From NCBI GenBank assembly GCA_026397015.1, contig JAPLVR010000006.1, positions 156,081 to 220,080 of the forward strand: a stretch of DNA of 64,000 nt, written 5' to 3'. Below the pieces are notes generated by a model. It saw only the letters and a program-made list of their open reading frames with translations. It had not been told where the DNA came from and searched no databases. Source of the stretch: Candidatus Iainarchaeum sp. (GTDB lineage: Archaea > Iainarchaeota > Iainarchaeia > Iainarchaeales > JAAZKV01). The position numbers were made by a program, and so were the translations under genes. Shown here piece after piece: positions 4,873 through 63,173 of the stretch (its first letter is position 1; every line of letters begins with the position of its first letter).

Positions 4873-5964
4873 TCACCCGAAGGGGCGCGCATTCCTGCGG
4901 AGCATAATCTTCGCTCCGACCTTATCGATTAATTTCTCGTAAATAATATTAATCTCATTTGGGCTAAGCCGCGCCCTCAAATCCGCCTCAATCAAAACAC
5001 TTGGAAAAACATACTCCTTGTGCAAAGCACTCAAAGAAAAAACAACTTCGGCAATTTCGTCCGCACAACCCTTCAAATCCGCTATAGAATTTTTTTTGCA
5101 AATGAACTCGACCCTCAGAGGCTTGTCAAATTTCGAAACCTTCAGGTAAAAAACAAAAATGCTTTCAGACCATTCCTTTGAATAATCCTTCAGAATTGCA
5201 TGGTTATCAGTATTTTTTGTGTAAGGGAAAGCGAATGTTCTTTCGCCCTCGTTCAAAAAATAATCCAAAAAAATCGAGTCGAAGGTTTTTTCGAGCGTAT
5301 TCGGTGCAACTGAAACTCCCTTGGCTTTCGGAAGGATTTCCTCGCGCATTATTTGATTAAACCTTGAGCCCCTCGAATCCTCAACACACGCAATCAAAGT
5401 GCAGCTGTTTTTCTCCGCAATCTTGTAGAGGATTTGAAAGTGTTCGACAATCGATTTGTAATCTTCATTTATTGCGGATTCCCTGCGCGGCTTGTCCTGG
5501 TACTGCGGAACGATTGAGCCGTCGATGAAAAAATATTTTGGCTTAAATTTTTCAATCACCTCGATTGAAAGGGAAACTTCCTTGCGCAAACGCTCTAAGG
5601 AAGTGCTCTGCCCGACCTCGTCATTTTCAAGCGAAGAGCGGAGCATAATCGGTTCGGGAAAGGAAACTATTTTCGGAAAATAAGCGGAGCTTTGAAGCAA
5701 CCCCTTATCATATTCAAAAACCACCCCTGCTGTTTTAATCAGCAGCAAATCAAGGAAAGCAAGTTTTTTCGGGGCGAAGCCGGAATCAACTCCCGCAACT
5801 ACTGCTGAAAGTTGCTCGCGCGCAACTGTTTCGACAATTTTTTCCCCGGAATTCGGCGCATTTTGAAATTTCAAATAAGAAAGTTTGTTTCCCAACGATT
5901 CGTGGAACGAATGATACTGCTGAATAGCAGAAACTGCCCTATCCATAAAATCGTTGATGGCCAT
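4873..5964 (-). CDS. nurA: NurA 5'-3' nuclease
   Basis: AGVDSG, E-R, FIDGS, P..L.EAD..AR; co-oriented with herA. Confidence 0.88.
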   Translation of the reverse strand: MAINDFMDRAVSAIQQYHSFHESLGNKLSYLKFQNAPNSGEKIVETVAREQLSAVVAGVDSGFAPKKLAFLDLLLIKTAGVVFEYDKGLLQSSAYFPKIVSFPEPIMLRSSLENDEVGQSTSLERLRKEVSLSIEVIEKFKPKYFFIDGSIVPQYQDKPRRESAINEDYKSIVEHFQILYKIAEKNSCTLIACVEDSRGSRFNQIMREEILPKAKGVSVAPNTLEKTFDSIFLDYFLNEGERTFAFPYTKNTDNHAILKDYSKEWSESIFVFYLKVSKFDKPLRVEFICKKNSIADLKGCADEIAEVVFSLSALHKEYVFPSVLIEADLRARLSPNEINIIYEKLIDKVGAKIMLRRNARPFG

Positions 5965-6002
5965 GAAGTCAGCCAATAAAAACAATATAGAAGGAATTCT
6001 TT

Positions 6003-6040
6003 AATATAAAAAGGTTTGGAAGGGTGCGTGCCAGTGGAAA
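6003..6040 (-). promoter_or_regulatory. Conserved box (TTTCCACTGGCACG) plus BRE/TATA of nurA-HAD-herA
   Basis: Minus strand tttccactggcacgcacccttccaaacctttttatatt. Confidence 0.7.
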
Positions 6041-6061
6041 AATCTAATGGTTTTGCCAGGG

Positions 6062-6112
6062 CTTTTTTCGCCGGCCCTTGTTTTTCGCCAGCCTTTTTCG
6101 AAAAAAGGCTGA
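6062..6112. repeat. Palindromic mini-element (GCC-T5-loop-A6-GGC + GGCGAAAA), intergenic copy
   Basis: Minus strand cagccttttttcgaaaaaggctggcgaaaaa; matches the 5' part of both tRNA-Gly introns. Confidence 0.65.
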
Positions 6113-6146
6113 TAAGAAGATTTGCAGGGAGACGTGCCGGTGGAAA

Positions 6147-6395
6147 CTAAAAACCAATTTCTCTTAAAATTTCCTTGGCCTTTTCAGGGGTTAAGCCGTG
6201 CCCCAAAAGATAGCTTTCTACGTAACCCTTCGAAACCCCCTTCCGCCTAAAAAAGCCAGCATCAATCTTTCTTCTCAAAAGAGTTTTTGCAGGGTCTTTG
6301 GTACGAATGGCTCGTACCAAAATCCTGGAAACAGGCGACCCTCCATGATGCGGCTTACCGCCGGGAAACCCTCTTGGTTTTACTACAGGACACAT
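6147..6395 (-). CDS. Small basic hypothetical protein
   Basis: 82 aa ORF with its own boxed promoter at about 6461-6496. Confidence 0.55.
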   Translation of the reverse strand: MCPVVKPRGFPGGKPHHGGSPVSRILVRAIRTKDPAKTLLRRKIDAGFFRRKGVSKGYVESYLLGHGLTPEKAKEILREIGF

Positions 6396-6502
6396 ATGAG
6401 ATAACCACTGTAGAGGAAATATAAATGCTTTTCCATTCTGTTAGCCCTAACTAATTTTCAATAAAAAAAGGTTTCCGGGCGGCGTGCCGGTGAAATCCCA
6501 AA

Positions 6503-7255
6503 TTAACTCCGAGTTGAAATCGCCCTTTTCCTAATTTCAAGTATTTCTGTCCACGTCGTTGGATTCTCGGTAACCAGACGCGCCAAAAAACTTTTCGAAC
6601 ATTTTTGTCCCCATTCCATCTTAAGCCGCACAGCTACAAGAGCTGAACGGAGCCCCAAAATAGCTTCAGCTTTATAATTTTTTACTGGAAAAAACGGCCC
6701 AAACTCAAGATCTTTTATTTTTTTTGATTCGTAGCTTCCGGTCAAAAAATTACTTTGCGCAAACGGATTAAGGCGATTAACGAATAAATCTTGGAAAGTA
6801 AAAGCATAAGCGGCGACTTCATTTCCGCCAAGAATATGAACAAACTCGTGATTCAATAACTCAATAGTCTCAGGGCGCCTCAAAGACCTTTCAGGAACAA
6901 AAATGTGCATACCTTTATTAGTCCGAAATCCGGCCGCTTCCATTTCGCCAGATGCAAACGACAAAGTTGAAAAAATATCGTCAGGAACGATACAAACCCT
7001 TTGAATTAATTTCTGCACTAACACTTTATTATTGCCCAAACCGAGAACCGAAAGAACGCTTCTCGCCTCTTTTCGAAGAGGCGCCGAGAAAGGGCGCCTG
7101 TATCTTTCACGACCATATTTTTGCAAAACCTTGGCCCTTATCCCATTCTGTGCAGCCGATAGGGGATTCATTAGTAATGGATTTTTGGGCTCACGCTTAC
7201 CCATTACTGCTAAAAACTTTTTCGCCCCTTGGGAAGAGCGAGCCGTTGAAACCAT
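6503..7255 (-). CDS. Basic hypothetical protein with HExxH (zincin-like) motif
   Basis: LNHEFVHILGGNEVAAY; start moved to MVSTARS because the longer ORF overlaps a tRNA. Confidence 0.6.
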   Translation of the reverse strand: MVSTARSSQGAKKFLAVMGKREPKNPLLMNPLSAAQNGIRAKVLQKYGRERYRRPFSAPLRKEARSVLSVLGLGNNKVLVQKLIQRVCIVPDDIFSTLSFASGEMEAAGFRTNKGMHIFVPERSLRRPETIELLNHEFVHILGGNEVAAYAFTFQDLFVNRLNPFAQSNFLTGSYESKKIKDLEFGPFFPVKNYKAEAILGLRSALVAVRLKMEWGQKCSKSFLARLVTENPTTWTEILEIRKRAISTRS

Positions 7256-17302: not shown

Positions 17303-17336
17303 CCTTTTAAACAATAACAACAAAAATTATTTTTAT

Positions 17337-17513
17337 GCGACCGTAGTCTAACGGTTATGATTCAACCTTGCCAACGGCCTTTTTAGAAAAAAGGCCGGCG
17401 AAAAAAACTGGCGAAAATGCTTCGCACCAGCAGTCTTTATGAAAAAGATCAACAAAAAAATTAGAAAAAAGAGCAACCAGGTTGAGGCCCGGGTCCAATT
17501 CCCGGCGGTCGCA
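17337..17513 (+). tRNA. tRNA-Gly(GCC) with 105-nt intron at 37/38 (17374-17478)
   Basis: Acceptor GCGACCG/CGGTCGC; CAACC-TTGCCA|intron|A-GGTTG; TTGC/GCAA splice helix. Confidence 0.88.
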
Positions 17514-17697
17514 TTACTCAAAAAAATTGGTGGTTAAATGCAGAAAAAATTTGTCAAAATCTGCTCGAAGTGCAGAAGCGAAAACATAAAGCAAAGACTT
17601 CCGCAAATCACGAATTCTTGGATATGCAACAACTGCGGAAACACAAATTTTAGCCCAATTGAAATAAAGAAAGGAAAATAAGTGAAAAAGTGATTGA

Positions 17698-18354
17698 ATG
17701 AGAACAAAAATAGCATTAATTTTCGGGCTTGTCCTGCTTTCATTCGCCATCGCAATTTATTCATACCAATTCATGCCGGACCAAATGGCTTCCCACTGGG
17801 GAATAAGCGGCGAGGCGAACGGCTATTCGGACAAAATGTTCGCGACATTTTCAATCCCTGTGCTTATCGCTGTTTTTACGGCGATTTTTTTGCTTCTGCC
17901 AAAAATCGACCCCATGAAGGAGAACATAAAAAAATTCTATTCTTATTATGAAAAATTTGTAATTGTTTTTATCGGGTTCATGCTTTTTTTGCAAATAATG
18001 ATGCTGCTGTGGAATGCCGGCATGAAAATAAGCTTTAATTTAATCCTTCCGATTGCGATGGGCGCGCTATTTTACTTTTTGGGAATTCTGCTCGAAAAGG
18101 CGAAAAGAAACTGGACTATAGGGATAAGGACTCCGTGGACGATGAGCAGCGAAAAAGTTTGGAACAAGACGCACAAGCTGGCGGGAAAGGTGTTTCGCGC
18201 AGCCGGAATAATTTCCATAATCGGAGTGCTAATTCCGGTATATTCATTCCTTTTCGTAATATTTCCCGTAATGCTGGCTGCGACATATCTGATAATTTAT
18301 TCATGTTTGGAATACAAGAAGGAACCGAAAGGGAAACGCAGAACTAAACGATAG
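17698..18354 (+). CDS. SdpI/DUF1648-family membrane protein
   Basis: HWG..G..NG, DP..EN, N..IGIRTPWT.....VW.KTH. Confidence 0.9.
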   Translation: MRTKIALIFGLVLLSFAIAIYSYQFMPDQMASHWGISGEANGYSDKMFATFSIPVLIAVFTAIFLLLPKIDPMKENIKKFYSYYEKFVIVFIGFMLFLQIMMLLWNAGMKISFNLILPIAMGALFYFLGILLEKAKRNWTIGIRTPWTMSSEKVWNKTHKLAGKVFRAAGIISIIGVLIPVYSFLFVIFPVMLAATYLIIYSCLEYKKEPKGKRRTKR

Positions 18355-18883
18355 ATATCTGAATTTTTTTGTTTACATCAAAAGATCCCGGAACGTCCAA
18401 GGAAGCTGCGAGTTCCCACCTTATCGGACCGGGAGACTGGGAAAATGGCTGAAGGGCTTTCAAAACATTTATGACGCCGTTTTGTGGCACATTTCCCTGA
18501 TTAAGCGCGGGAGCGCTAATTTCAAACGAATACTCTGAAAAACCCGAATATTCCTTTTCTCCGTCAAGAACAGCCTTGAACTCATAAACAACAACATCCT
18601 TGATATCGTATTCCATTGAATACCTTCCCTGATTTCTGGAGGACTGTGAATTTATTCCAAAATCACGAGGCCCCATCGGGTCGAGTCCACTGCCGGCTCT
18701 TCTGTCTGTAACGGTCCTGACGACCTGCTGTTTTTGCGTTCCAGAAAGGGCCACTCTCAACTCGCGGGCCTTTTTCGGGGAATTCAATGTCAACAAAAGC
18801 TTTCCCGTTATCAATTCGCCGGAAGAATAATTCTGCTTCGGAAGTTGAATTTCAATTTTTCCTTCGCCAAACCCAAAAACCAT
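18344..18883 (-). CDS. Arrestin-N/SpoOM-like beta-sandwich protein
   Basis: IEIQL....Y..GE.ITG.L.L.L..P.KAR.LRV, Y.F.I..P, I.W.L.A.LD.P; start at MVFGFG. Confidence 0.55.
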   Translation of the reverse strand: MVFGFGEGKIEIQLPKQNYSSGELITGKLLLTLNSPKKARELRVALSGTQKQQVVRTVTDRRAGSGLDPMGPRDFGINSQSSRNQGRYSMEYDIKDVVVYEFKAVLDGEKEYSGFSEYSFEISAPALNQGNVPQNGVINVLKALQPFSQSPGPIRWELAASLDVPGSFDVNKKIQISIV

Positions 18884-18911
18884 CAAATTCCCCCTAAAAA
18901 AATAAATTTTG

Positions 18912-19874
18912 TTACCTGCTTCTTTTTTTTCCAAAATTTTTTGCCTTTCCAGCTTTTTTCCTAACGCGCCCGCGCCCAAGTTTTTTCGGGTAAAGGACCC
19001 TCCATGCAAGGATCCTCTTTATCCTAGTTGAAGAATCGTGATGCTTTACAACCTGCAAATAAATTTTTGAGATTGCAAACCAGTAGCCCACAATGAAAAC
19101 AGAAACGCCGAAAGCGGCTCCAATGTGCCTCGCCAACTCAAGGTCAGCACTAAGCGAAGAACCCAAAATCGCGTGAAGCCCGAAAAAAAGCAAAATTATA
19201 TTTGCAACGGCGCCCGCGAAAAATGAAGTGATCGCGCAAAGCACGAATAAGAACAGCAGCACGAACACGAGCGCAATAAAAATTTCTTTTTCCCTTTGAT
19301 GGGTGAGGCGCCACGACTCGAGAATTGCATCTTTAATTTTTATCCCTTTATTAATCAAAATAAGCGTCGGAAAAAGCAGCCTAATGGAACTATACAAGAC
19401 GCACAAAAAGTAAATAATTGAAAGGAAAATAAGAGAATACGCGAGAAGCTCCGACCGCACAACTGAGGCGGCGTAATTCGTAAGCAAAATCCCCATTAGG
19501 GAAAGAAGCTGAATAACCCTGTATCGCTTTTCAAGATTCCAAACAAGAAGATACCAAAGCTCTAAAATTTGAAGAAAAAAAACATCAACGATTTTGAAAA
19601 CCGAAATTTTTATTGATTGAAAGCCGGAGTTTTTAAGCGAAACCCTGATTAGGCAAACCATTCCCGCAAAGACAAGTGCCTGTGCAACGTAATAAATGTC
19701 GCTGAAAATCGCTTCGGCTTCATAAGAGAAATAAAACTGCCCCCAAAAAATTTCGACCATTCTTTCAAGGACGAAAATAAGCAGGAACATTATGAAAAAG
19801 AAAAGCAGGTACATTTTCGCTTTTCCATGGAGAACCCACTTGTATGTGGATTCAATAACCGCCTCGTAATCCAT
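18912..19874 (-). CDS. Multi-pass membrane protein
   Basis: About 7 TM helices; DA..ESW.LT motif; basic tail. Confidence 0.75.
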   Translation of the reverse strand: MDYEAVIESTYKWVLHGKAKMYLLFFFIMFLLIFVLERMVEIFWGQFYFSYEAEAIFSDIYYVAQALVFAGMVCLIRVSLKNSGFQSIKISVFKIVDVFFLQILELWYLLVWNLEKRYRVIQLLSLMGILLTNYAASVVRSELLAYSLIFLSIIYFLCVLYSSIRLLFPTLILINKGIKIKDAILESWRLTHQREKEIFIALVFVLLFLFVLCAITSFFAGAVANIILLFFGLHAILGSSLSADLELARHIGAAFGVSVFIVGYWFAISKIYLQVVKHHDSSTRIKRILAWRVLYPKKLGRGRVRKKAGKAKNFGKKRSR

Positions 19875-19932
19875 GCTTAAATAACACTTTTCTTATTATT
19901 AAGAATTACCTTAAACCAAAATTGCAAAAAAT

Positions 19933-20568
19933 CTAGTGAAGGGCTTCATCCAAAAAAGGCTTTATTTGGGCAAAAACCTCCTCAATCGGGACATTCGCGT
20001 CAATCACCTTTATATTTTCCTCCGGAAGAAGCTTTGGTTGCCCCAAAAAAAGCCCCCTCAAATTTGAAATGAACCCAATGCTTCGAAATTTGTCGGATTC
20101 TTTTCTTTTTTCCGACTTTTCGGAATGCATGCGCCTATGGGCTTCTTTCGGATTAACGTCAAGAATCAGGGCTAAATCGGGCGCCAAAAAGTTTTTGTGT
20201 GCGGCAAAAACTTTGTTAAAATCTTTTCCCTGTGCTGTTTGGTAGGCAATGCTCGAATATTTGTAGCGGTCGCAAATCACGACAAAATTTTTTTCCAAAG
20301 AAGGTTTGATGATATTTTCAATATGCCACTTTCTGTCATCCACAAAAAGCTGGAATATTTCTTCGGCATAATCCGCCGAAGATTTCTGCTTTTTGAAATA
20401 TTCTCTCAATTTTAATCCGTGCGGGCCGCGCGTGGGCTCATCCGTTATGAGAATATTGTCATACTTTTTGCTTTTATCATAAATGTATTCGAAAGTTTTC
20501 TTCACCATGGTTCCTTTGCCGCAGCCTGAAATGCCGTCAAAAACAATAAAAGTCCCCTTCCTCATCAA
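19933..20568 (-). CDS. tmk: Thymidylate kinase
   Basis: FIVFDG..GCGKGT, EPT, DR..H, CDRY..SS.AYQ, PDL. Confidence 0.9.
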   Translation of the reverse strand: MMRKGTFIVFDGISGCGKGTMVKKTFEYIYDKSKKYDNILITDEPTRGPHGLKLREYFKKQKSSADYAEEIFQLFVDDRKWHIENIIKPSLEKNFVVICDRYKYSSIAYQTAQGKDFNKVFAAHKNFLAPDLALILDVNPKEAHRRMHSEKSEKRKESDKFRSIGFISNLRGLFLGQPKLLPEENIKVIDANVPIEEVFAQIKPFLDEALH

Positions 20569-20592
20569 ACCACTGCCAACGCAATATCCTCT

Positions 20593-21237
20593 TTATTTGT
20601 CCAAAACCCTTTTTACCCCTTTCCAAACCATTTCGTGAATTGCTTCAATTGAAAGAAGCTTTTCCTTTTCAACACAGGAAATTTTTTTCCAACCCAACTT
20701 TTCAGTATTGCGTTCGTACTCCCCGAAAATCGCGCGCTGAAAATTAGAATCCGATTCATGCTGGTCTTTTTTTTGATTTCTGCCATTCATTAATTTTTCA
20801 GCGATATTCGGCGGAACGGAAAGAACCAGCACCAAATCCGGTTTTGGCAATTTTTTACAAACAAAATTAATCCACTCCCGCAAAGAATCTTTTTCGTTTT
20901 CTTTTGCAAGCGCGACCTGATAAGTAAGGGTCGAGGTAAAATACCTGCTCATCAAAACGGTTTTTCCTTCAGAGAGCGCATTTTCAATCTGTTTTTTTGA
21001 TTCATAAAAATCGGCCATATAAAGCAGGGAGATGAATTCTGCCGGCAAATCCTCTTTTCTGCCAAATTTTCCTTCCAAGTAATCGTCGACAACCTTTCCG
21101 AAAGAAACTCCGTGCTTCGGAAAATGCATTTGAACAAGCCGGGCGCCTTCTTTTTGCAAATGTTCCGCAAGAAGATTTAGCTGAGTTGTTTTGCCGGAAG
21201 CATCCGTGCCTTCCAAAACAATTAATTTTCCTTTCAT
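20593..21237 (-). CDS. tmk: Thymidylate kinase-like paralog
   Basis: LIVLEG.DASGKTTQ, FP, SRYF.S...YQ, PKPDL, D.HE. Confidence 0.85.
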   Translation of the reverse strand: MKGKLIVLEGTDASGKTTQLNLLAEHLQKEGARLVQMHFPKHGVSFGKVVDDYLEGKFGRKEDLPAEFISLLYMADFYESKKQIENALSEGKTVLMSRYFTSTLTYQVALAKENEKDSLREWINFVCKKLPKPDLVLVLSVPPNIAEKLMNGRNQKKDQHESDSNFQRAIFGEYERNTEKLGWKKISCVEKEKLLSIEAIHEMVWKGVKRVLDK

Positions 21238-21349
21238 CTGGAATCCAAAAAGCAGTGAAGCTCCATCCCCTTAAAAAACCATTTCTTGAATTTCACGCCC
21301 GAGAGACAAATTTAAAAAAGAAACCAAAGCTAATCTATCTGATGCAAGT

Positions 21350-21470
21350 CGACAGCTTCGCTGTCAAAGTGTCATTGCGAAGCAATGGCGCGTGTAATGC
21401 ATGATTCGGATGCATACACACCAAGAAAGTGCCATCGACGTACGATGGCACGCGTAACGCATATGCAATA
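21350..21470. repeat. Multi-hairpin element in the tRNA-Gly(TCC) leader
   Basis: gacagcttcgctgtc, cattgcgaagcaatg, gtgtaatgcat..atgcatacac, gtgccatcg..cgatggcac. Confidence 0.55.
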
Positions 21471-21472
21471 GC

Positions 21473-21639
21473 GCGTCCGTGATGTAACGGTAGCATGAAA
21501 GCCTTCCATCGGCCTTTTTCAAAGGCCGGCGAAAAGCACTGTCTTCGCCTTCGGCTCGACAGAGCGTGCTTCGCAGGTTTTGATTTAAAAAAAGGATTGA
21601 AGAAAGCTTTCCGTTGGGGTTCAAATCCCCACGGGCGCA
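21473..21639 (+). tRNA. tRNA-Gly(TCC) with 96-nt intron at 37/38 (21509-21604)
   Basis: Acceptor GCGTCCG/CGGGCGC; AAAGC-CTTCCA|intron|A-GCTTT; CTTC/GAAG splice helix. Confidence 0.9.
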
Positions 21640-51597: not shown

Positions 51598-53439
51598 ATG
51601 GAAAATGAAAACCGAGAAAAAGAGGAGCTCCTGCAGGCGGCGCCAAAAGAGTGCAGAAAAGGCGTTGAAGAAGCCATTGATTTCCTTGAGGCGGTTTATT
51701 CCTCGGAAGGAGAAACCGGAAGAAAAAAAATAAAACACTTCATCAGAATAGGAAAAATGGATATTGAAAGAAATTTTGAAAGGGAAACGATACTTGGAAA
51801 TATGCTTTACGGGTCAATAGCGGAAAGAAAAACAAACGCCGAAGAAATAGAAAAAAGGTTCGGAAAAAAAACCGCGGAACTTGCAAAGGAAGCCGGAGAA
51901 ATACTTCAAATAATCGGAAGCAACTTCGGGAAAGTGCCGTCGGAAACGCTCAGCTCAATAATGCTTTCGATGACTGAAAATGTCCAAACAACAATGATTG
52001 GAATCGCGGCAATGCTTGACTGGCTCAGAAACATAGAAGAATTAAATGAAAATGAAAGAAAAAAAATAATCGGCATGACAAAAGAAATTTACATACCATT
52101 AGTGATGAAACTCGGGCTGCAAAGCATCACGTGGCAGCTTCAGGATTACTGCTTCAAGGCGGAAAATCCGAAAGCATACGAAAAAATAAAACAGCTGGTC
52201 GGAAAAACGAGGGAAGAAAGAGAAAAACTTGTTGAAGAGGTAAAAGAGGAACTTGGAAAACTGCTGAAGGGAAAAATCGAGGTGCAAATATTCGGGAGAC
52301 CGAAAAACTTCTGGGCAATAAACAAAAAAATGGAAAAAGTGCTGTTCAAAAACATCTACGACCTGTACGGAATCAGGATTATCTGCAATAAGGAAAGCGA
52401 ATGCTACGAAGCGCTCGGCTACATTCATTCAAAATACAAAATAATTCCAGGAACCTTTGACGATTATATTTCAAAACCAAAAGACGAGGGTTACCAAAGC
52501 ATCCATACCACTGTTGAGAGAGGAAACGACATCATTGAATTCCAAATAAGAACATGGGCGCAACACCTCAGGACGGAATCAAACCTTTACTGGAAATACA
52601 GGCGATTAACAAAGGACAGGGAATTCGAGAAAGAACTGAGCTGGGAAAGGCAGCTCATGGAATGGCAAAAAAGCGCGGGAAAGGAAGCGCAGATGAGAAG
52701 TTTCACCGGAAAAAAAATATTCACATTCACGCCGAAAAACGAAGTAATAGTTTTGCCAAAAGAGGCAACTGTTATTGATTTTGCCTTCGCAATACACACT
52801 GATCTTGGCAAAAGAATGGAAAAGGCAAAAGTGAACGGAAAACTCGTTCCGATAGAAATGGAACTAAAAAACCTCGACAGGGTCGAGATAATTGCGTCAA
52901 AACAACCCCGAATAAAAAGAAACTGGGTAAATTTTGCGAAAAGCAGCAAGGCAAAAACAAAAATAAAAGCTCATTTTGGAATCAAGGCGAAAAGGGTGAA
53001 AGCCGGAACGGAAAAAGAAACAATCGGAAAAACGAGAAAAACAAAAACAGCGGAATGCTGCAATCCGCTGCCCGGCGAAGAAGTTGTCGGGGTAAAAACC
53101 AGCAAGAGAAAAATAGTCATACACAGAAAGGATTGCATCAACCTGAAAAAAATTTCTCCGAAAAAAATAATCAAACTTGAATTTATGGGGGAAGAAGGAA
53201 AAACCAGGCTCAAAATAACGGCACTGGACAGAATAGGGCTGCTCGGAGAAATACTTTTAAAAATAAAAAAAAGCGGAGCAACAATAGTCTCAACCGACTT
53301 CAAAATAAAAAAATCGGGATACGTTGAATCAACATTTGAGATAAAAATCAAAAATATCGAGAAACTTGAAAAGCTGGCGGAAGAAATCGAAAAAATCCCG
53401 TCGGTTTACGGTGCCGAAAGGATATCGCAAAAGATTTAA
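51598..53439 (+). CDS. relA: Long RelA/SpoT homolog (pseudo-HD, synthetase, TGS, ZFD, ACT)
   Basis: GRPK, DLYGIRII, DYISKPK..GYQSIHT, EFQIRT, FTPK..DFAFAIHT, CCNPLPG, DR.GLL; HD replaced by LYGS. Confidence 0.88.
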   Translation: MENENREKEELLQAAPKECRKGVEEAIDFLEAVYSSEGETGRKKIKHFIRIGKMDIERNFERETILGNMLYGSIAERKTNAEEIEKRFGKKTAELAKEAGEILQIIGSNFGKVPSETLSSIMLSMTENVQTTMIGIAAMLDWLRNIEELNENERKKIIGMTKEIYIPLVMKLGLQSITWQLQDYCFKAENPKAYEKIKQLVGKTREEREKLVEEVKEELGKLLKGKIEVQIFGRPKNFWAINKKMEKVLFKNIYDLYGIRIICNKESECYEALGYIHSKYKIIPGTFDDYISKPKDEGYQSIHTTVERGNDIIEFQIRTWAQHLRTESNLYWKYRRLTKDREFEKELSWERQLMEWQKSAGKEAQMRSFTGKKIFTFTPKNEVIVLPKEATVIDFAFAIHTDLGKRMEKAKVNGKLVPIEMELKNLDRVEIIASKQPRIKRNWVNFAKSSKAKTKIKAHFGIKAKRVKAGTEKETIGKTRKTKTAECCNPLPGEEVVGVKTSKRKIVIHRKDCINLKKISPKKIIKLEFMGEEGKTRLKITALDRIGLLGEILLKIKKSGATIVSTDFKIKKSGYVESTFEIKIKNIEKLEKLAEEIEKIPSVYGAERISQKI

Positions 53440-56589: not shown

Positions 56590-56702
56590 TGGAGACGGCG
56601 AGATTTGAACCCGCGACACACCGGTCTTCAGCCGATTGCTTGTGGGCGAAAAAAACATAAAAAAAATGCTTAAATTCGTCTCCCAGGCTGAGCTACGTCT
56701 CC
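56590..56702 (-). tRNA. tRNA-Phe(GAA) with 39-nt D-arm intron at 22/23 (56641-56679)
   Basis: Acceptor GGAGACG/CGTCTCC; loop CTGAAGA; BHB with TGGG/CCCA helix. Confidence 0.9.
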
Positions 56703-56730
56703 ATCAAGTAGAATTTCATAAGAAAAGTTT

Positions 56731-57674: not shown

Positions 57675-57790
57675 AGTCTATCGAGCACTAAGCAAAAGCT
57701 CAAAGCTTTTGCGATGTGTGACAAACCTCGAGTTTGCCACATCAGCGAAGATAGACTTTTTCGCCACAAAGCAAAAGCAAAGCTTTTGCG
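57675..57790. repeat. Nested hairpin element between the tRNA-Lys genes
   Basis: agtctatcgagc...gcgaagatagact enclosing gcaaaagc/gcttttgc and gatgtg/cacatc; second gcaaaagc-gcttttgc hairpin. Confidence 0.55.
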
Positions 57791-59437: not shown

Positions 59438-59989
59438 TTTTTTGAATAAAATGGGGATTTTCGCCGATTTTTGGCAAGAAAATGCACAAATTCATATACA
59501 TAATAGCTGTTTTTTCAAAATTTTTTCATGCACACCTTTTAACTAAATTTGACAAAAATAAACAATAAAACAAAGTTAACCTCAGAGAGCCAAAATTAGC
59601 CAAAAATAAGGACATCACTTTGACCCCCTTTGATCTAAAATTATCGATTATGGCCTATCGAACCAAATAACACGAAAGAATCATGGGATTGCCAAATGAG
59701 GAGGCCACACAAAAACAAGGCAAAGTTGAGTTGAGCGCACCAAATATCAAAAATCTCAAAAATAGAGACAAAGGGACAAATTAGCAAAAAAATGAAAAAA
59801 TACAATGCCCTAACTCTGGCAAACAATTGCAACCAAAATCCATATTTTCAATCTCAAATTAAATCTTTCAAAAAATTCTTAAACAAGGCATCTCACTTCA
59901 ACTAAAAATAGTGCAAGTTGAGCAAATTTAGTAATTACCAGTAACTACGGTCATTAACTATCATTACAGTAAAGATTATAAAGGATTAT

Positions 59990-62051: not shown

Positions 62052-63173
62052 TTAGAGTTTGTCCAGCGGGCTAACAATTTTTTTGAGCTGCTCACTTGCA
62101 ACATTCGTATAAATTTGCGTCGTGCTCAAGCTGCTGTGGCCAAGAAGCGACTGAATATATCTGATATTTGTTCCCCCTTCAAGTAAATGCGTTGCATAAC
62201 TGTGACGCAATGAGTGCGGCGTAACGTGTTTTGTTATTCCCGCTTTTTTCGCCGAATCCCTGACGATTCTTTGAACCGTATCCGTCGTTATTGATTTGCC
62301 GTTTTTCTTCGAGAAAACGAATTCGCTGGGGATTTTTTTGTGCTTTAAGTATTTTTTAAATTCCTTGGTCCAGTCTTTTGAGAGAATAATCAATCTGTCT
62401 TTGCTTCCTTTTCCGAACCTTATCATCGCGGTTCTTTCTTTCAAATTAATGTCCTCAATTTTGAGCCTTACAACTTCCGAAACTCTGCACCCCGAGCCGT
62501 ACATGAGTTCCAGCATCAATCTGTTTCTTCCAAATCGCGTCGCGTGAAACAAAATCCTTATTTCATCCCGTGTCAAAACCTTTGGAAGGGCCTTACTTTT
62601 TTTCGGAATATTGATGTCGTCAAGAATTTTTCTTTTTAGCATCTTTTCAAATAAGTATTTTAGCGCCGCATGGATAAGGGACAACGTGGCATTTGAACAG
62701 TTTTTCTCCTTCTTATACGCCAAATAGGATGTTATATCACGTTTATCCACAACTTCAGCCGGTTTGTTCATGTGATAGAGCCCTTCCCTCGCATAAATCA
62801 AATACATTTTAAGCGTCTTCGGCGAGTAGCCGCTAATTAACAGTTCCTGCCTGAATTCTTTCAATAATCTCTCGAATTCAGGGTTCTCTTTTCGCGGAGC
62901 ACCGTTATTTTTTTGAGCTTGGTTTTGCCCAGTTGAAGCGGAAGTCTGCGGAGCATACAGTTTTTGAGCTTCAAAATTTTGATTTTCAGAAATTGGTTGC
63001 GGAGCAAAAGGTTCAGAACTTTTCTGATCCCCATTTCGCGGAGCATTGTTTTCTGGATTTTCTGGATTTAGTTGTGATGGGCTGTTTTGCGTAGCAAGTG
63101 TTTCCGGATTTTCCGCATCAGTAGTGCCCGATTTGTTCGCCCCAGACAGAGGATTATCCTGCATTTCGTTCAT
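62052..63173 (-). CDS. xerA: Tyrosine recombinase XerA-like
   Basis: GCRVSE, GKG.KDR, TPH.LRHSYATHLL, LLGH....TT.IY; long disordered N-terminus. Confidence 0.9.
   Translation of the reverse strand: MNEMQDNPLSGANKSGTTDAENPETLATQNSPSQLNPENPENNAPRNGDQKSSEPFAPQPISENQNFEAQKLYAPQTSASTGQNQAQKNNGAPRKENPEFERLLKEFRQELLISGYSPKTLKMYLIYAREGLYHMNKPAEVVDKRDITSYLAYKKEKNCSNATLSLIHAALKYLFEKMLKRKILDDINIPKKSKALPKVLTRDEIRILFHATRFGRNRLMLELMYGSGCRVSEVVRLKIEDINLKERTAMIRFGKGSKDRLIILSKDWTKEFKKYLKHKKIPSEFVFSKKNGKSITTDTVQRIVRDSAKKAGITKHVTPHSLRHSYATHLLEGGTNIRYIQSLLGHSSLSTTQIYTNVASEQLKKIVSPLDKL

Follow-up and report, generated by a model that had tools for sequence, protein, structure and literature searches.

How introns arrive in archaeal tRNA genes is an open question, and it is raised in concrete form by a stretch of chromosomal DNA from Candidatus Iainarchaeum sp. 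(assembly GCA_026397015.1, contig JAPLVR010000006.1, positions 156,081 to 220,080; this whole 64-kb stretch is called the window below). Two tRNA-Gly genes in the window carry introns that begin with the same unit of about 32 nt, a hairpin followed by a conserved tail, and the unit also stands free between protein-coding genes. A sequence-only reading of the window had taken this as the trace of a miniature mobile element that colonises or creates introns spliced at bulge-helix-bulge (BHB) motifs. Following up this proposal, we find that the unit belongs to a repeat family present in many archaeal genomes, often at or inside tRNA genes and sometimes between direct repeats of its target. At a probability of about one half, we consider it a non-autonomous copy-and-insert repeat, similar to repetitive extragenic palindromic (REP) sequences or to miniature inverted-repeat transposable elements (MITEs), which persists within tRNA genes at places from which it is spliced out.

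Results

Two spliced tRNA-Gly genes begin their introns with a common unit

The window is ordinary archaeal DNA with 41% G+C, about 70 genes and eight tRNA genes in all. Five uninterrupted tRNAs were found by Rfam and by ARAGORN at default settings, and two interrupted genes, at 17336-17514 and 21473-21639, were added once ARAGORN was allowed introns, which bears out the introns of 105 and 96 nt that had been read from the letters alone (Table 1). The second gene is wrongly labelled SeC(tca) by ARAGORN, because the program shifts its intron; read at the BHB motif, it is tRNA-Gly(TCC) with an intron at 21509-21604. When 17374-17478 is removed in silico, ARAGORN calls tRNA-Gly(gcc), and when 21510-21605 is removed, an interval shifted rightward by one base from the canonical intron, it calls tRNA-Gly(tcc), so that excision leaves a canonical tRNA in both cases, as it does for archaeal BHB-spliced introns. 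Read by hand, the motif of tRNA-Gly(GCC) has a helix TTGC (17368-17371)/GCAA (17473-17476) with the bulges C-A/A on the 5' side and C-C/A on the 3' side (the slash marks the splice site), in agreement with the minimum free energy (MFE) fold of the pre-tRNA; that of tRNA-Gly(TCC) has a helix CTTC (21503-21506)/GAAG (21599-21602) with the bulges C-A/T and A-A/A, with which the MFE fold is compatible. In both genes, tRNA bases 32-35 pair with four bases close to the 3' end of the intron, giving a 4-bp helix between two 3-nt bulges that hold the splice sites. On this computed geometry and tRNA product, both are genuine introns at the canonical position, which the archaeal splicing endonuclease would be expected to remove. 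A C/D-box guide RNA within them was considered and rejected, as no C/D-type boxes were seen by eye in either intron.

In both introns the unit starts at the second base, one past the 5' splice site. It consists of a 5-bp GC stem, C-R-GCC/GGC-Y-G, with a T-run and an A-run at its top, followed by the tail GCGAAAA. The common start CGGCC-T5-loop-A-run-GGCCG-GCGAAAA had been recognised in the sequence-only reading, and the pattern GCCTTTTT N0-8 AAAGGCYGGCGAAAA indeed matches both introns (17377-17404 and 21512-21535, plus strand) and one further site in the window (6082-6109, minus strand), while none of 100 shuffles matches at all. This third copy lies between an 82-aa open reading frame (ORF; 6147-6395, minus strand) and the NurA gene (4873-5985); it had been located near 6062-6112, and is now placed at 6081-6111 and on the minus strand. 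Against shuffled controls, the likeness proved significant: local alignment scores of 38 (intron against intron) and of 43 and 30 (introns against the free copy) each exceed those of all 1000 dinucleotide shuffles. A covariance model (CM R1), built from 48 copies of the unit, finds only these three copies at E ≤1e-10, the next match having an E-value of 0.035. Hairpins of any stem with a T-run and an A-run occur at six sites in the window, and the tail follows exactly the three whose stem contains (A/G)GCC.

It seemed conceivable that the two introns resemble each other only because both genes descend from one intron-bearing tRNA-Gly gene, or that A/T-rich sequences are alike by chance, with no separate element involved. 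Both genes do encode tRNA-Gly, and both introns are A/T-rich and sit at position 37/38. However, the tRNA bodies are identical at 50 of 73 positions, compared to 30 of 40 in the first, unit-bearing columns of the aligned introns, indicating that shared ancestry of the genes is not enough to account for the unit; none of the 1000 shuffles reaches the observed score, and the unit occurs outside introns as well as in tRNA-Leu introns of other phyla. This explanation is already contradicted, and we regard it as highly improbable.

Downstream of the unit, the resemblance becomes looser. The previously reported TGCTTCGCA is indeed present in both introns, but it is not significant alone, since its three matches in the window are equalled in nine of 100 shuffles. 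Its TTCGC is predicted to form a helix with a GCGAA in or near the tail in either intron; in intron 1, this GCGAA is the one of a second GGCGAAAA. Of the second T/A-run hairpin that both introns had been thought to contain, the one in intron 1 is predicted, whereas the distal A-run of intron 2 has no local partner and is paired in the MFE fold with the T-run of the first hairpin. Intron 2 has an inner module with a homologue ahead of tRNA-Ser at another archaeal locus (L082), where the enclosed hairpin reads CTACC...GGTAG and differs by two compensatory pairs.

The free copy has repeats of its own. The adjoining segment 6062-6080 resembles an incomplete tandem copy of the 3' half of the unit. 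A diverged direct repeat of about 35 nt lies on either side of the copy and recurs upstream of the next gene; its meaning is ambiguous, as it could stem from an ancient target duplication but also looks like a promoter/operator module that was duplicated. In the same region, CGTGCCRGTGGAAA-like boxes (6027-6040, 6133-6146 and 6483-6496) stand upstream of three consecutive minus-strand genes, each followed by AAACC and a T-rich box. Such boxes have six matches at up to two mismatches, against 0.77 expected, and look like a common operator plus promoter; they may also resemble archaeal origin-recognition boxes.

Table 1. Positions in the window of the two tRNA-Gly genes, the copies of the unit and related features
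Feature	Position	Strand	Description
tRNA-Gly(GCC)	17337..17513	+	exons 17337-17373 and 17479-17513; intron 17374-17478, 105 nt, position 37/38
tRNA-Gly(TCC)	21473..21639	+	exons 21473-21508 and 21605-21639; intron 21509-21604, 96 nt, position 37/38
Unit copy 1	17375..17407	+	hairpin CGGCC-T5-AG-A6-GGCCG and GCGAAAAAAA tail; CM R1 17373-17406, 47.7 bits, E 1.2e-12
Unit copy 2	21510..21535	+	hairpin CGGCC-T5-C-AAA-GGCCG and GCGAAAA tail; CM R1 21508-21537, 41.1 bits, E 1.4e-10
Unit copy 3, free-standing	6081..6111	-	hairpin CAGCC-T6-CG-A5-GGCTG and GCGAAAAA tail; CM R1 6080-6113, 48.1 bits, E 8.8e-13
Rest of structured part, intron 1	17408..17449	+	second GGCGAAAA 17410-17417, TGCTTCGCA 17418-17426, predicted T/A-run hairpin 17433-17449
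Inner module, intron 2	21528..21575	+	GGCGAAAAGCAC ... GTGCTTCGCA enclosing hairpin CTGTC...GACAG
Second GGCGAAAA by free copy	6065-6072, in 6062..6080	-	preceded by GGCC
Diverged direct repeat, about 35 nt, either side of free copy	6005..6146	-	TTTCCACYGGCACG ... AAAYCTTYTTAT; third copy 6455-6496
tRNA-Phe(GAA)	56600..56712	-	D-arm region with an insert, about 39 nt long, at a non-canonical position
TTTTCGCC in tRNA-Phe insert	56645-56652		tail 8-mer, on the other strand
Hairpin-less AACG-CGGCGAAAAAA	14724..14738	+	33-47 nt after tRNA-Val; CM R1 E 0.035
Solo tail 8-mers near tRNAs	7219-7226, 57758-57765, 59458-59465	-

The unit recurs in other archaeal genomes

A relaxed-pattern scan of species-representative genomes returned at least 125 loci, with 2-kb flanks for 80 of the 125 and 300 nt for many others. 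If all bases were equally frequent, about six chance matches would be expected in the scanned collection. Among the matches listed, at least 43 loci in at least 26 assemblies (counted by accession prefix) are archaeal, their titles naming Iainarchaeum, Woesearchaeota, Pacearchaeota, Micrarchaeota, Altiarchaeota, Undinarchaeota, simply 'archaeon', or, for two metagenome-assembled genomes (MAGs), Thaumarchaeota and Methanobacteriota. A copy (L097) is also present in the complete DPANN genome CP010424.1. Non-intronic copies, on which the idea of an independent element hinged, exist: besides the single one of the window, other archaeal genomes contribute dozens. CM R1, the kind of model that the sequence-only reading had suggested building, finds additional diverged copies within the archaeal loci.

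The same matches show what is conserved in the unit. Base -2 (before GCC), which the search pattern leaves free, is C in 44 of 45 archaeal copies, and the -1:Y stem pair is of Watson-Crick type in 42 of 45; in an alignment of 47 distinct rows (A3), the three copies of the window included, this pair is AU 29 times, GC 15 times, GU once and something else twice. Since positions not fixed by the pattern are conserved or paired, the hairpin is selected as a hairpin, and the variable length of its loop argues against a double-stranded DNA site of fixed spacing. Within 90 nt downstream of the tail, TTCGC is found in 15 of 48 copies, compared to 3 of 48 upstream (10 against 1 for CTTCGC). Given this excess, the tail of many copies doubles as the 5' half of a further helix, able to enclose variable hairpins.

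The unit is found in both orientations and at variable distances from neighbouring genes, and it forms tandem arrays and inverted pairs (L083, L096, L117, L028), with L028 presenting a head-to-head pair composed of hairpin, GGCGAAAA, C, TTTTCGCG and hairpin. Copies remote from tRNA genes lie between housekeeping genes, such as those for aminoacyl-tRNA synthetases, ribosomal proteins, RNA polymerase, exosome and MCM. In two assemblies (L008, 2026-2090; L017, 1935-2000; both numbered in the orientation of the element) the unit is followed by a compensatorily differing hairpin and then by the common start of a short ORF, ATGGATAAT..., a layout suggesting that the unit has stayed upstream of an orthologous small gene. 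Between the window and the fetched loci there is no synteny, and the element alone matches. Rfam yields no match to the unit in the window, either at the gathering score or at E-values up to 5, and none at the gathering score in 20 loci; the motif is undescribed in Rfam and in the literature searched, subscription journals lying outside its coverage.

Copies border and interrupt tRNA genes

For 21 of 48 archaeal copies, those of the window included, ARAGORN calls a tRNA around the unit or within 200 nt of it; this is a lower bound, since many loci carry only 300-nt flanks. The count supersedes one based on the proximity of a T-loop motif, which had given only 16 of 48 where about 15% were expected. 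The canonical intron of tRNA-Leu(CAA) begins with the unit in two assemblies that are unrelated to each other (L083 and L093). Elsewhere the unit stands 1-2 nt past the 3' end of a tRNA (L029, L086, L096, L083) or, inverted, 0-4 nt before its 5' end (L006, L082, L046). L083 combines one intron copy with an array of four hairpin-plus-tail units behind the same tRNA-Leu.

The tail 8-mer, taken alone, is a weak match, occurring 27 times in the window. It lies within 100 nt of seven of the eight tRNA genes of the window, and eight of the 27 occurrences fall into the 3.8% of the window near tRNAs (P about 5e-6). One of the 27 is the 8-mer that had been noticed on the opposite strand of the insert in tRNA-Phe; it is there, but has little weight by itself with 27 such sites around. 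The tRNA-Phe gene was overlooked by ARAGORN and by Rfam, which instead gives a spurious weak tmRNA match at this place. Hairpin-less GGCYGGCGAAA is found only twice, compared to 49 times in full copies, and solo YGGCGAAAA 19 times, compared to 15 for solo RGGCGAAAA; with these counts, a 5'-truncation signature of retroposition is not supported.

A further short sequence, the 7-mer GCGAAGC, occurs 22 times on both strands of the window, where 10.6 are expected and none of 100 shuffles reaches 22. Four of its sites lie in or beside the two Gly genes (17419-17425, 21355-21361, 21377-21383 and 21568-21574). GCGAAGC is said to form an unusually stable DNA mini-hairpin.

Target duplications flank some of the copies

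At four archaeal loci (L011, L031, L040 and L119) the unit is flanked by direct duplications of its target, which indicates that it was inserted there as a discrete block. In L011, the hairpin with GGCGAAAAAA (32 nt) lies between two CTTTTCCCAA repeats, which by eye reach 14 nt with one mismatch. In L040, the unit is flanked by a perfect 23-nt duplication that comprises the ATG and first seven codons of a gene, the downstream copy leaving the gene intact. In L031, the flanking repeat is a 17-nt stretch of a tRNA 5' end (one mismatch), and in L119 an inverted copy is accompanied by repeats of the 3' end of tRNA-Gln, 21-27 nt and 11 nt in length. Repeats of at least 10 nt abut the hairpin in 4 of 46 testable archaeal copies, compared to 73 of 5000 positions drawn at random from this DNA; when at least 12 nt are required, the figures are 3 of 46 and 45 of 5000. 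All statements on mobility rest on MAG assemblies.

Partial tRNA duplications adjoin the unit in L031, L119 and L086, and could be read as att repeats left by integration and subsequent internal deletion. The copies would then be scars of larger, tRNA-targeting integrative elements, such as plasmids or viruses with a tyrosine integrase, and hairpin and tail the end or att-proximal part of these. For Caldiarchaeum (PMC3293823), a mobile-element model of tRNA gene disruption ties insertion of foreign DNA to tRNA fragments and intron gain, both being proposed to result from integration at a tRNA gene, and the window does contain a single tyrosine-recombinase (Phage_integrase-family) gene (62055-63173). 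This gene, however, is 40 kb off and may encode a chromosomal Xer-type enzyme, and the 2-kb flanks available for 25 copies contain no integrase gene. Moreover, only 32-45 nt separate the repeats in L011, L031 and L040, and the duplicated targets of L011 and L040 are not tRNA sequence. As described in the same source, the Caldiarchaeum element measures 1.8 kb and encodes a recombinase, whereas the block found here has about 32 nt and encodes nothing. We therefore think it quite improbable that the copies are integration scars.

A Clostridia repeat contains the same motif

Among the matches listed, at least 82 loci are bacterial, and nearly all of them belong to one repeat family of Clostridia (Oscillospiraceae and relatives). 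This repeat is high-copy, intergenic and multi-hairpin (for example L012, L021, L025, L047, L076 and about 75 others). In it, the hairpin + GGCGAAAA motif is one hairpin of a longer unit and displays the same stem covariation. No tRNA adjoins the copy at any of 82 bacterial loci, with only three tRNAs in 212 kb, and none of 81 bacterial copies has a target duplication. A Clostridia-type hairpin with a TGGCAAAAAA tail is also present in non-coding DNA of a 6.5-kb faecal phage scaffold (L126, MT837614.1, 301-335; E 7e-3). The remaining matches in phage and plasmid collections (E 0.9-4) were judged to be chance.

Further features of the window

According to Rfam, the window encodes an archaeal SRP RNA, and Pfam matches among its proteins include Hjc, RadA, TFE, aTrm56, the RNase P subunit Rpr2, ribosomal proteins and HerA/NurA. 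Two genes of the thymidylate kinase family lie in tandem shortly before the tRNA-Gly(TCC) region (19936-21237, minus strand). The 138 nt immediately upstream of this tRNA gene (21335-21472, plus strand) form four tight hairpins, two of which are topped by GC-TTC-GC / GC-GAA-GC; their MFE is -56 kcal/mol (z -4.6), none of 200 shuffles being as stable, and Rfam has no match. This stretch could be a co-transcribed small RNA or a further array of hairpin repeats. At 51598-53436 (plus strand), the window encodes a full-length RelA/SpoT-type protein with the domains HD, RelA_SpoT, TGS and ACT, a gene type that is uncommon in archaea.

Discussion

The case for an insertion repeat is made by a discrete block, occasional target duplications, arrays, both orientations, many genomic contexts and the absence of coding capacity. 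According to this reading, new sites would receive a copy of the unit as one block, in some cases with direct duplication of 10-23 nt or more of the target; as it encodes nothing, the unit would have to be moved by machinery supplied in trans. It would persist only where it is harmless: between genes, flush with the ends of tRNA genes and inside spliced tRNA genes. At a 5' splice site, its hairpin falls just where the splicing motif has its outer helix (h'); a copy in this position could help to make a cleavable motif, or at least not spoil one, and such insertions would survive. That spliced introns hide the element from selection, as the sequence-only reading had it, can reasonably be inferred. 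The Gly introns may have been created by insertion, or may have pre-existed and then been colonised.

Several observations weigh against this reading. Target duplications occur in only 4 of 46 copies and, with lengths of 10, 17, 21-27 and 23 nt, are unlike those of a transposase with a fixed stagger. None is visible at the two Gly introns of the window, where the mobile element had been proposed; what stands of this proposal is a real repeat family with non-intronic copies, and the duplications at four other loci (L011, L031, L040 and L119). The 101 ORFs beside the 25 archaeal copies with 2-kb flanks include no gene for a transposase, an integrase or a reverse transcriptase, and Pfam detects no transposase or reverse transcriptase among the 78 ORFs of the window. 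The core is nearly identical across several archaeal phyla, whereas selfish repeats are as a rule confined to one lineage; such uniformity is unusual for them and suggests that a conserved host factor or function constrains the unit. The Clostridia repeat, seemingly unrelated and devoid of a tRNA link or of duplications, has the same motif, perhaps by convergence or through a shared factor. Enrichment near tRNAs persists when non-coding DNA alone is considered, 8 of 12 tail 8-mers falling within 20% of the non-coding bases (P about 6e-4). Finally, in 11 of 11 abutting copies, four intron starts included, the hairpin is turned toward the tRNA part and the tail away from it, a polarity not expected of purely neutral scatter. 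The near-identical core, the tRNA enrichment beyond non-coding space and the polarity argue that there is more to the unit than insertion: it is either recognised by a conserved host factor or passes through tRNA processing in its life cycle.

If a conserved archaeal factor reads it, the unit would be a host cis-element for tRNA expression, acting as a bidirectional oligo-T terminator or insulator, or marking processing sites for RNase Z, RNase P or the splicing endonuclease, and intron copies would be kept as the h' helix. Besides the conservation of the core across phyla, this idea can draw on the 21 of 48 archaeal copies that lie inside or within 200 nt of an ARAGORN-called tRNA, on the tail 8-mer close to seven of the eight tRNA genes of the window, and on the abutting copies, all 11 of which bring the hairpin next to a processing site (3' end, 5' end or 5' splice site). 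Each strand has T-runs of 4-6, and several copies stand behind tRNA 3' ends, with the array after tRNA-Leu in L083. Other copies, however, are intronic, where a T5 run at the start of the intron would hinder synthesis of the tRNA if it terminated transcription; in L004, L010 and L071 they lie between divergent genes where, by crude ORF calls, nothing ends, and in L040 a copy lies within the gene start that has been duplicated. That the unit occurs in either orientation and at no constant distance from the neighbouring genes fits a host signal poorly, and three full copies in 64 kb with about 70 genes and eight tRNAs are few for a general terminator, which we rejected also for the six stem, T-run and A-run sites in the whole window. 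A promoter was rejected too, as distances and orientations are inconsistent (37-48 nt to three tRNAs, convergent elsewhere) and the likely promoters of the window consist of AAACC and a T-rich box. On balance, a host cis-element is possible but somewhat unlikely.

If instead tRNA processing belongs to the life cycle of the unit, the latter might be a copy-and-paste mini-retroelement, or another polymerase-copied element, whose source RNA is excised from tRNA transcripts. Cleavage by RNase Z after a tRNA, or after its antisense mirror image, would free an RNA with the hairpin first and an A-rich tail, and cleavage by the splicing endonuclease at a 5' splice site would free the same kind of RNA, which could then be copied into new sites, leaving target duplications of variable length. 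Release of this kind would account for the constant orientation of the hairpin toward the tRNA. As in short interspersed nuclear elements (SINEs), an A-rich tail stands next to a variable duplication: in L011 and L031 the tail, alone or with a few more bases, abuts the second repeat, and in L040 there are 14 nt more between the two, unless the duplication extends upstream. The abundant 5'-truncated copies and the reverse transcriptase that go with SINE-like elements were not found (2 truncated against 49 full; no reverse transcriptase in 78 + 101 ORFs). Support is limited to the A-rich tail beside variable-length duplications and to the polarity rule, and we consider this variant improbable.

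Among known elements, REP sequences and REPINs of bacteria are short extragenic imperfect palindromes with a short conserved single-stranded flank, which occur in many copies, form inverted pairs and arrays, and are mobilised in trans. The archaeal unit is likewise a short, non-coding, extragenic palindrome with many copies, inverted pairs and arrays. In contrast to the 5' tetranucleotide of REPs, however, its conserved flank, GCGAAAA, lies on the 3' side, and it is common to several phyla, strongly tied to tRNA genes and accompanied by target duplications; a gene for a RAYT (Y1 transposase) is absent from the 78 ORFs of the window and from the 101 ORFs beside copies. With MITEs it has in common that it is small, non-autonomous, flanked by target duplications and present in some inverted pairs (L028), but at about 32 nt it has no terminal inverted repeats besides the hairpin and no known parent transposon, and its duplications vary in length and are missing from most copies instead of having one fixed length. 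Nor does it look derived from IS200/IS605 elements, which leave no duplication and have a fixed 5' tetra- or pentanucleotide, since 4 of 46 copies are duplicated and the bases 5' of the hairpin are variable.

For tRNA introns themselves, the closest precedent comes from Thermoproteales, in which tRNA genes of different identity share introns of very similar sequence (Fujishima et al. 2010, as presented in the review PMC4090602); there, intron gain is considered to take place at the DNA level, limited by the BHB requirement, and its mechanism is described as unknown (PMC4090602). Compared to that account, the shared part here is only the unit and a 9-mer, not a whole intron; the likeness covers the first 36 nt or so plus TGCTTCGCA, and while both window genes encode tRNA-Gly, the introns that carry the unit elsewhere belong to tRNA-Leu(CAA). 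The unit is moreover not confined to introns but also borders tRNAs and lies in spacers of protein genes, in several DPANN phyla instead of one crenarchaeal order, and with target duplications. A 2026 preprint on Asgard tRNA introns reports no general route of arrival.

Beyond what the sequence-only reading had claimed, the element spans phyla and concentrates at the borders of tRNA genes, and a host function is possible. A block of about 32 nt that is located inside introns at the splice site, at tRNA ends and, newly inserted with duplications, elsewhere offers a defined and traceable sequence with which to address intron arrival. If the unit is a host signal, it would be an undescribed conserved motif at tRNA genes in a large share of the archaea about which little is known. 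If it is a mini-retroelement, tRNA introns would be both product and source of the element, which would provide a concrete route to de novo intron gain in archaea.

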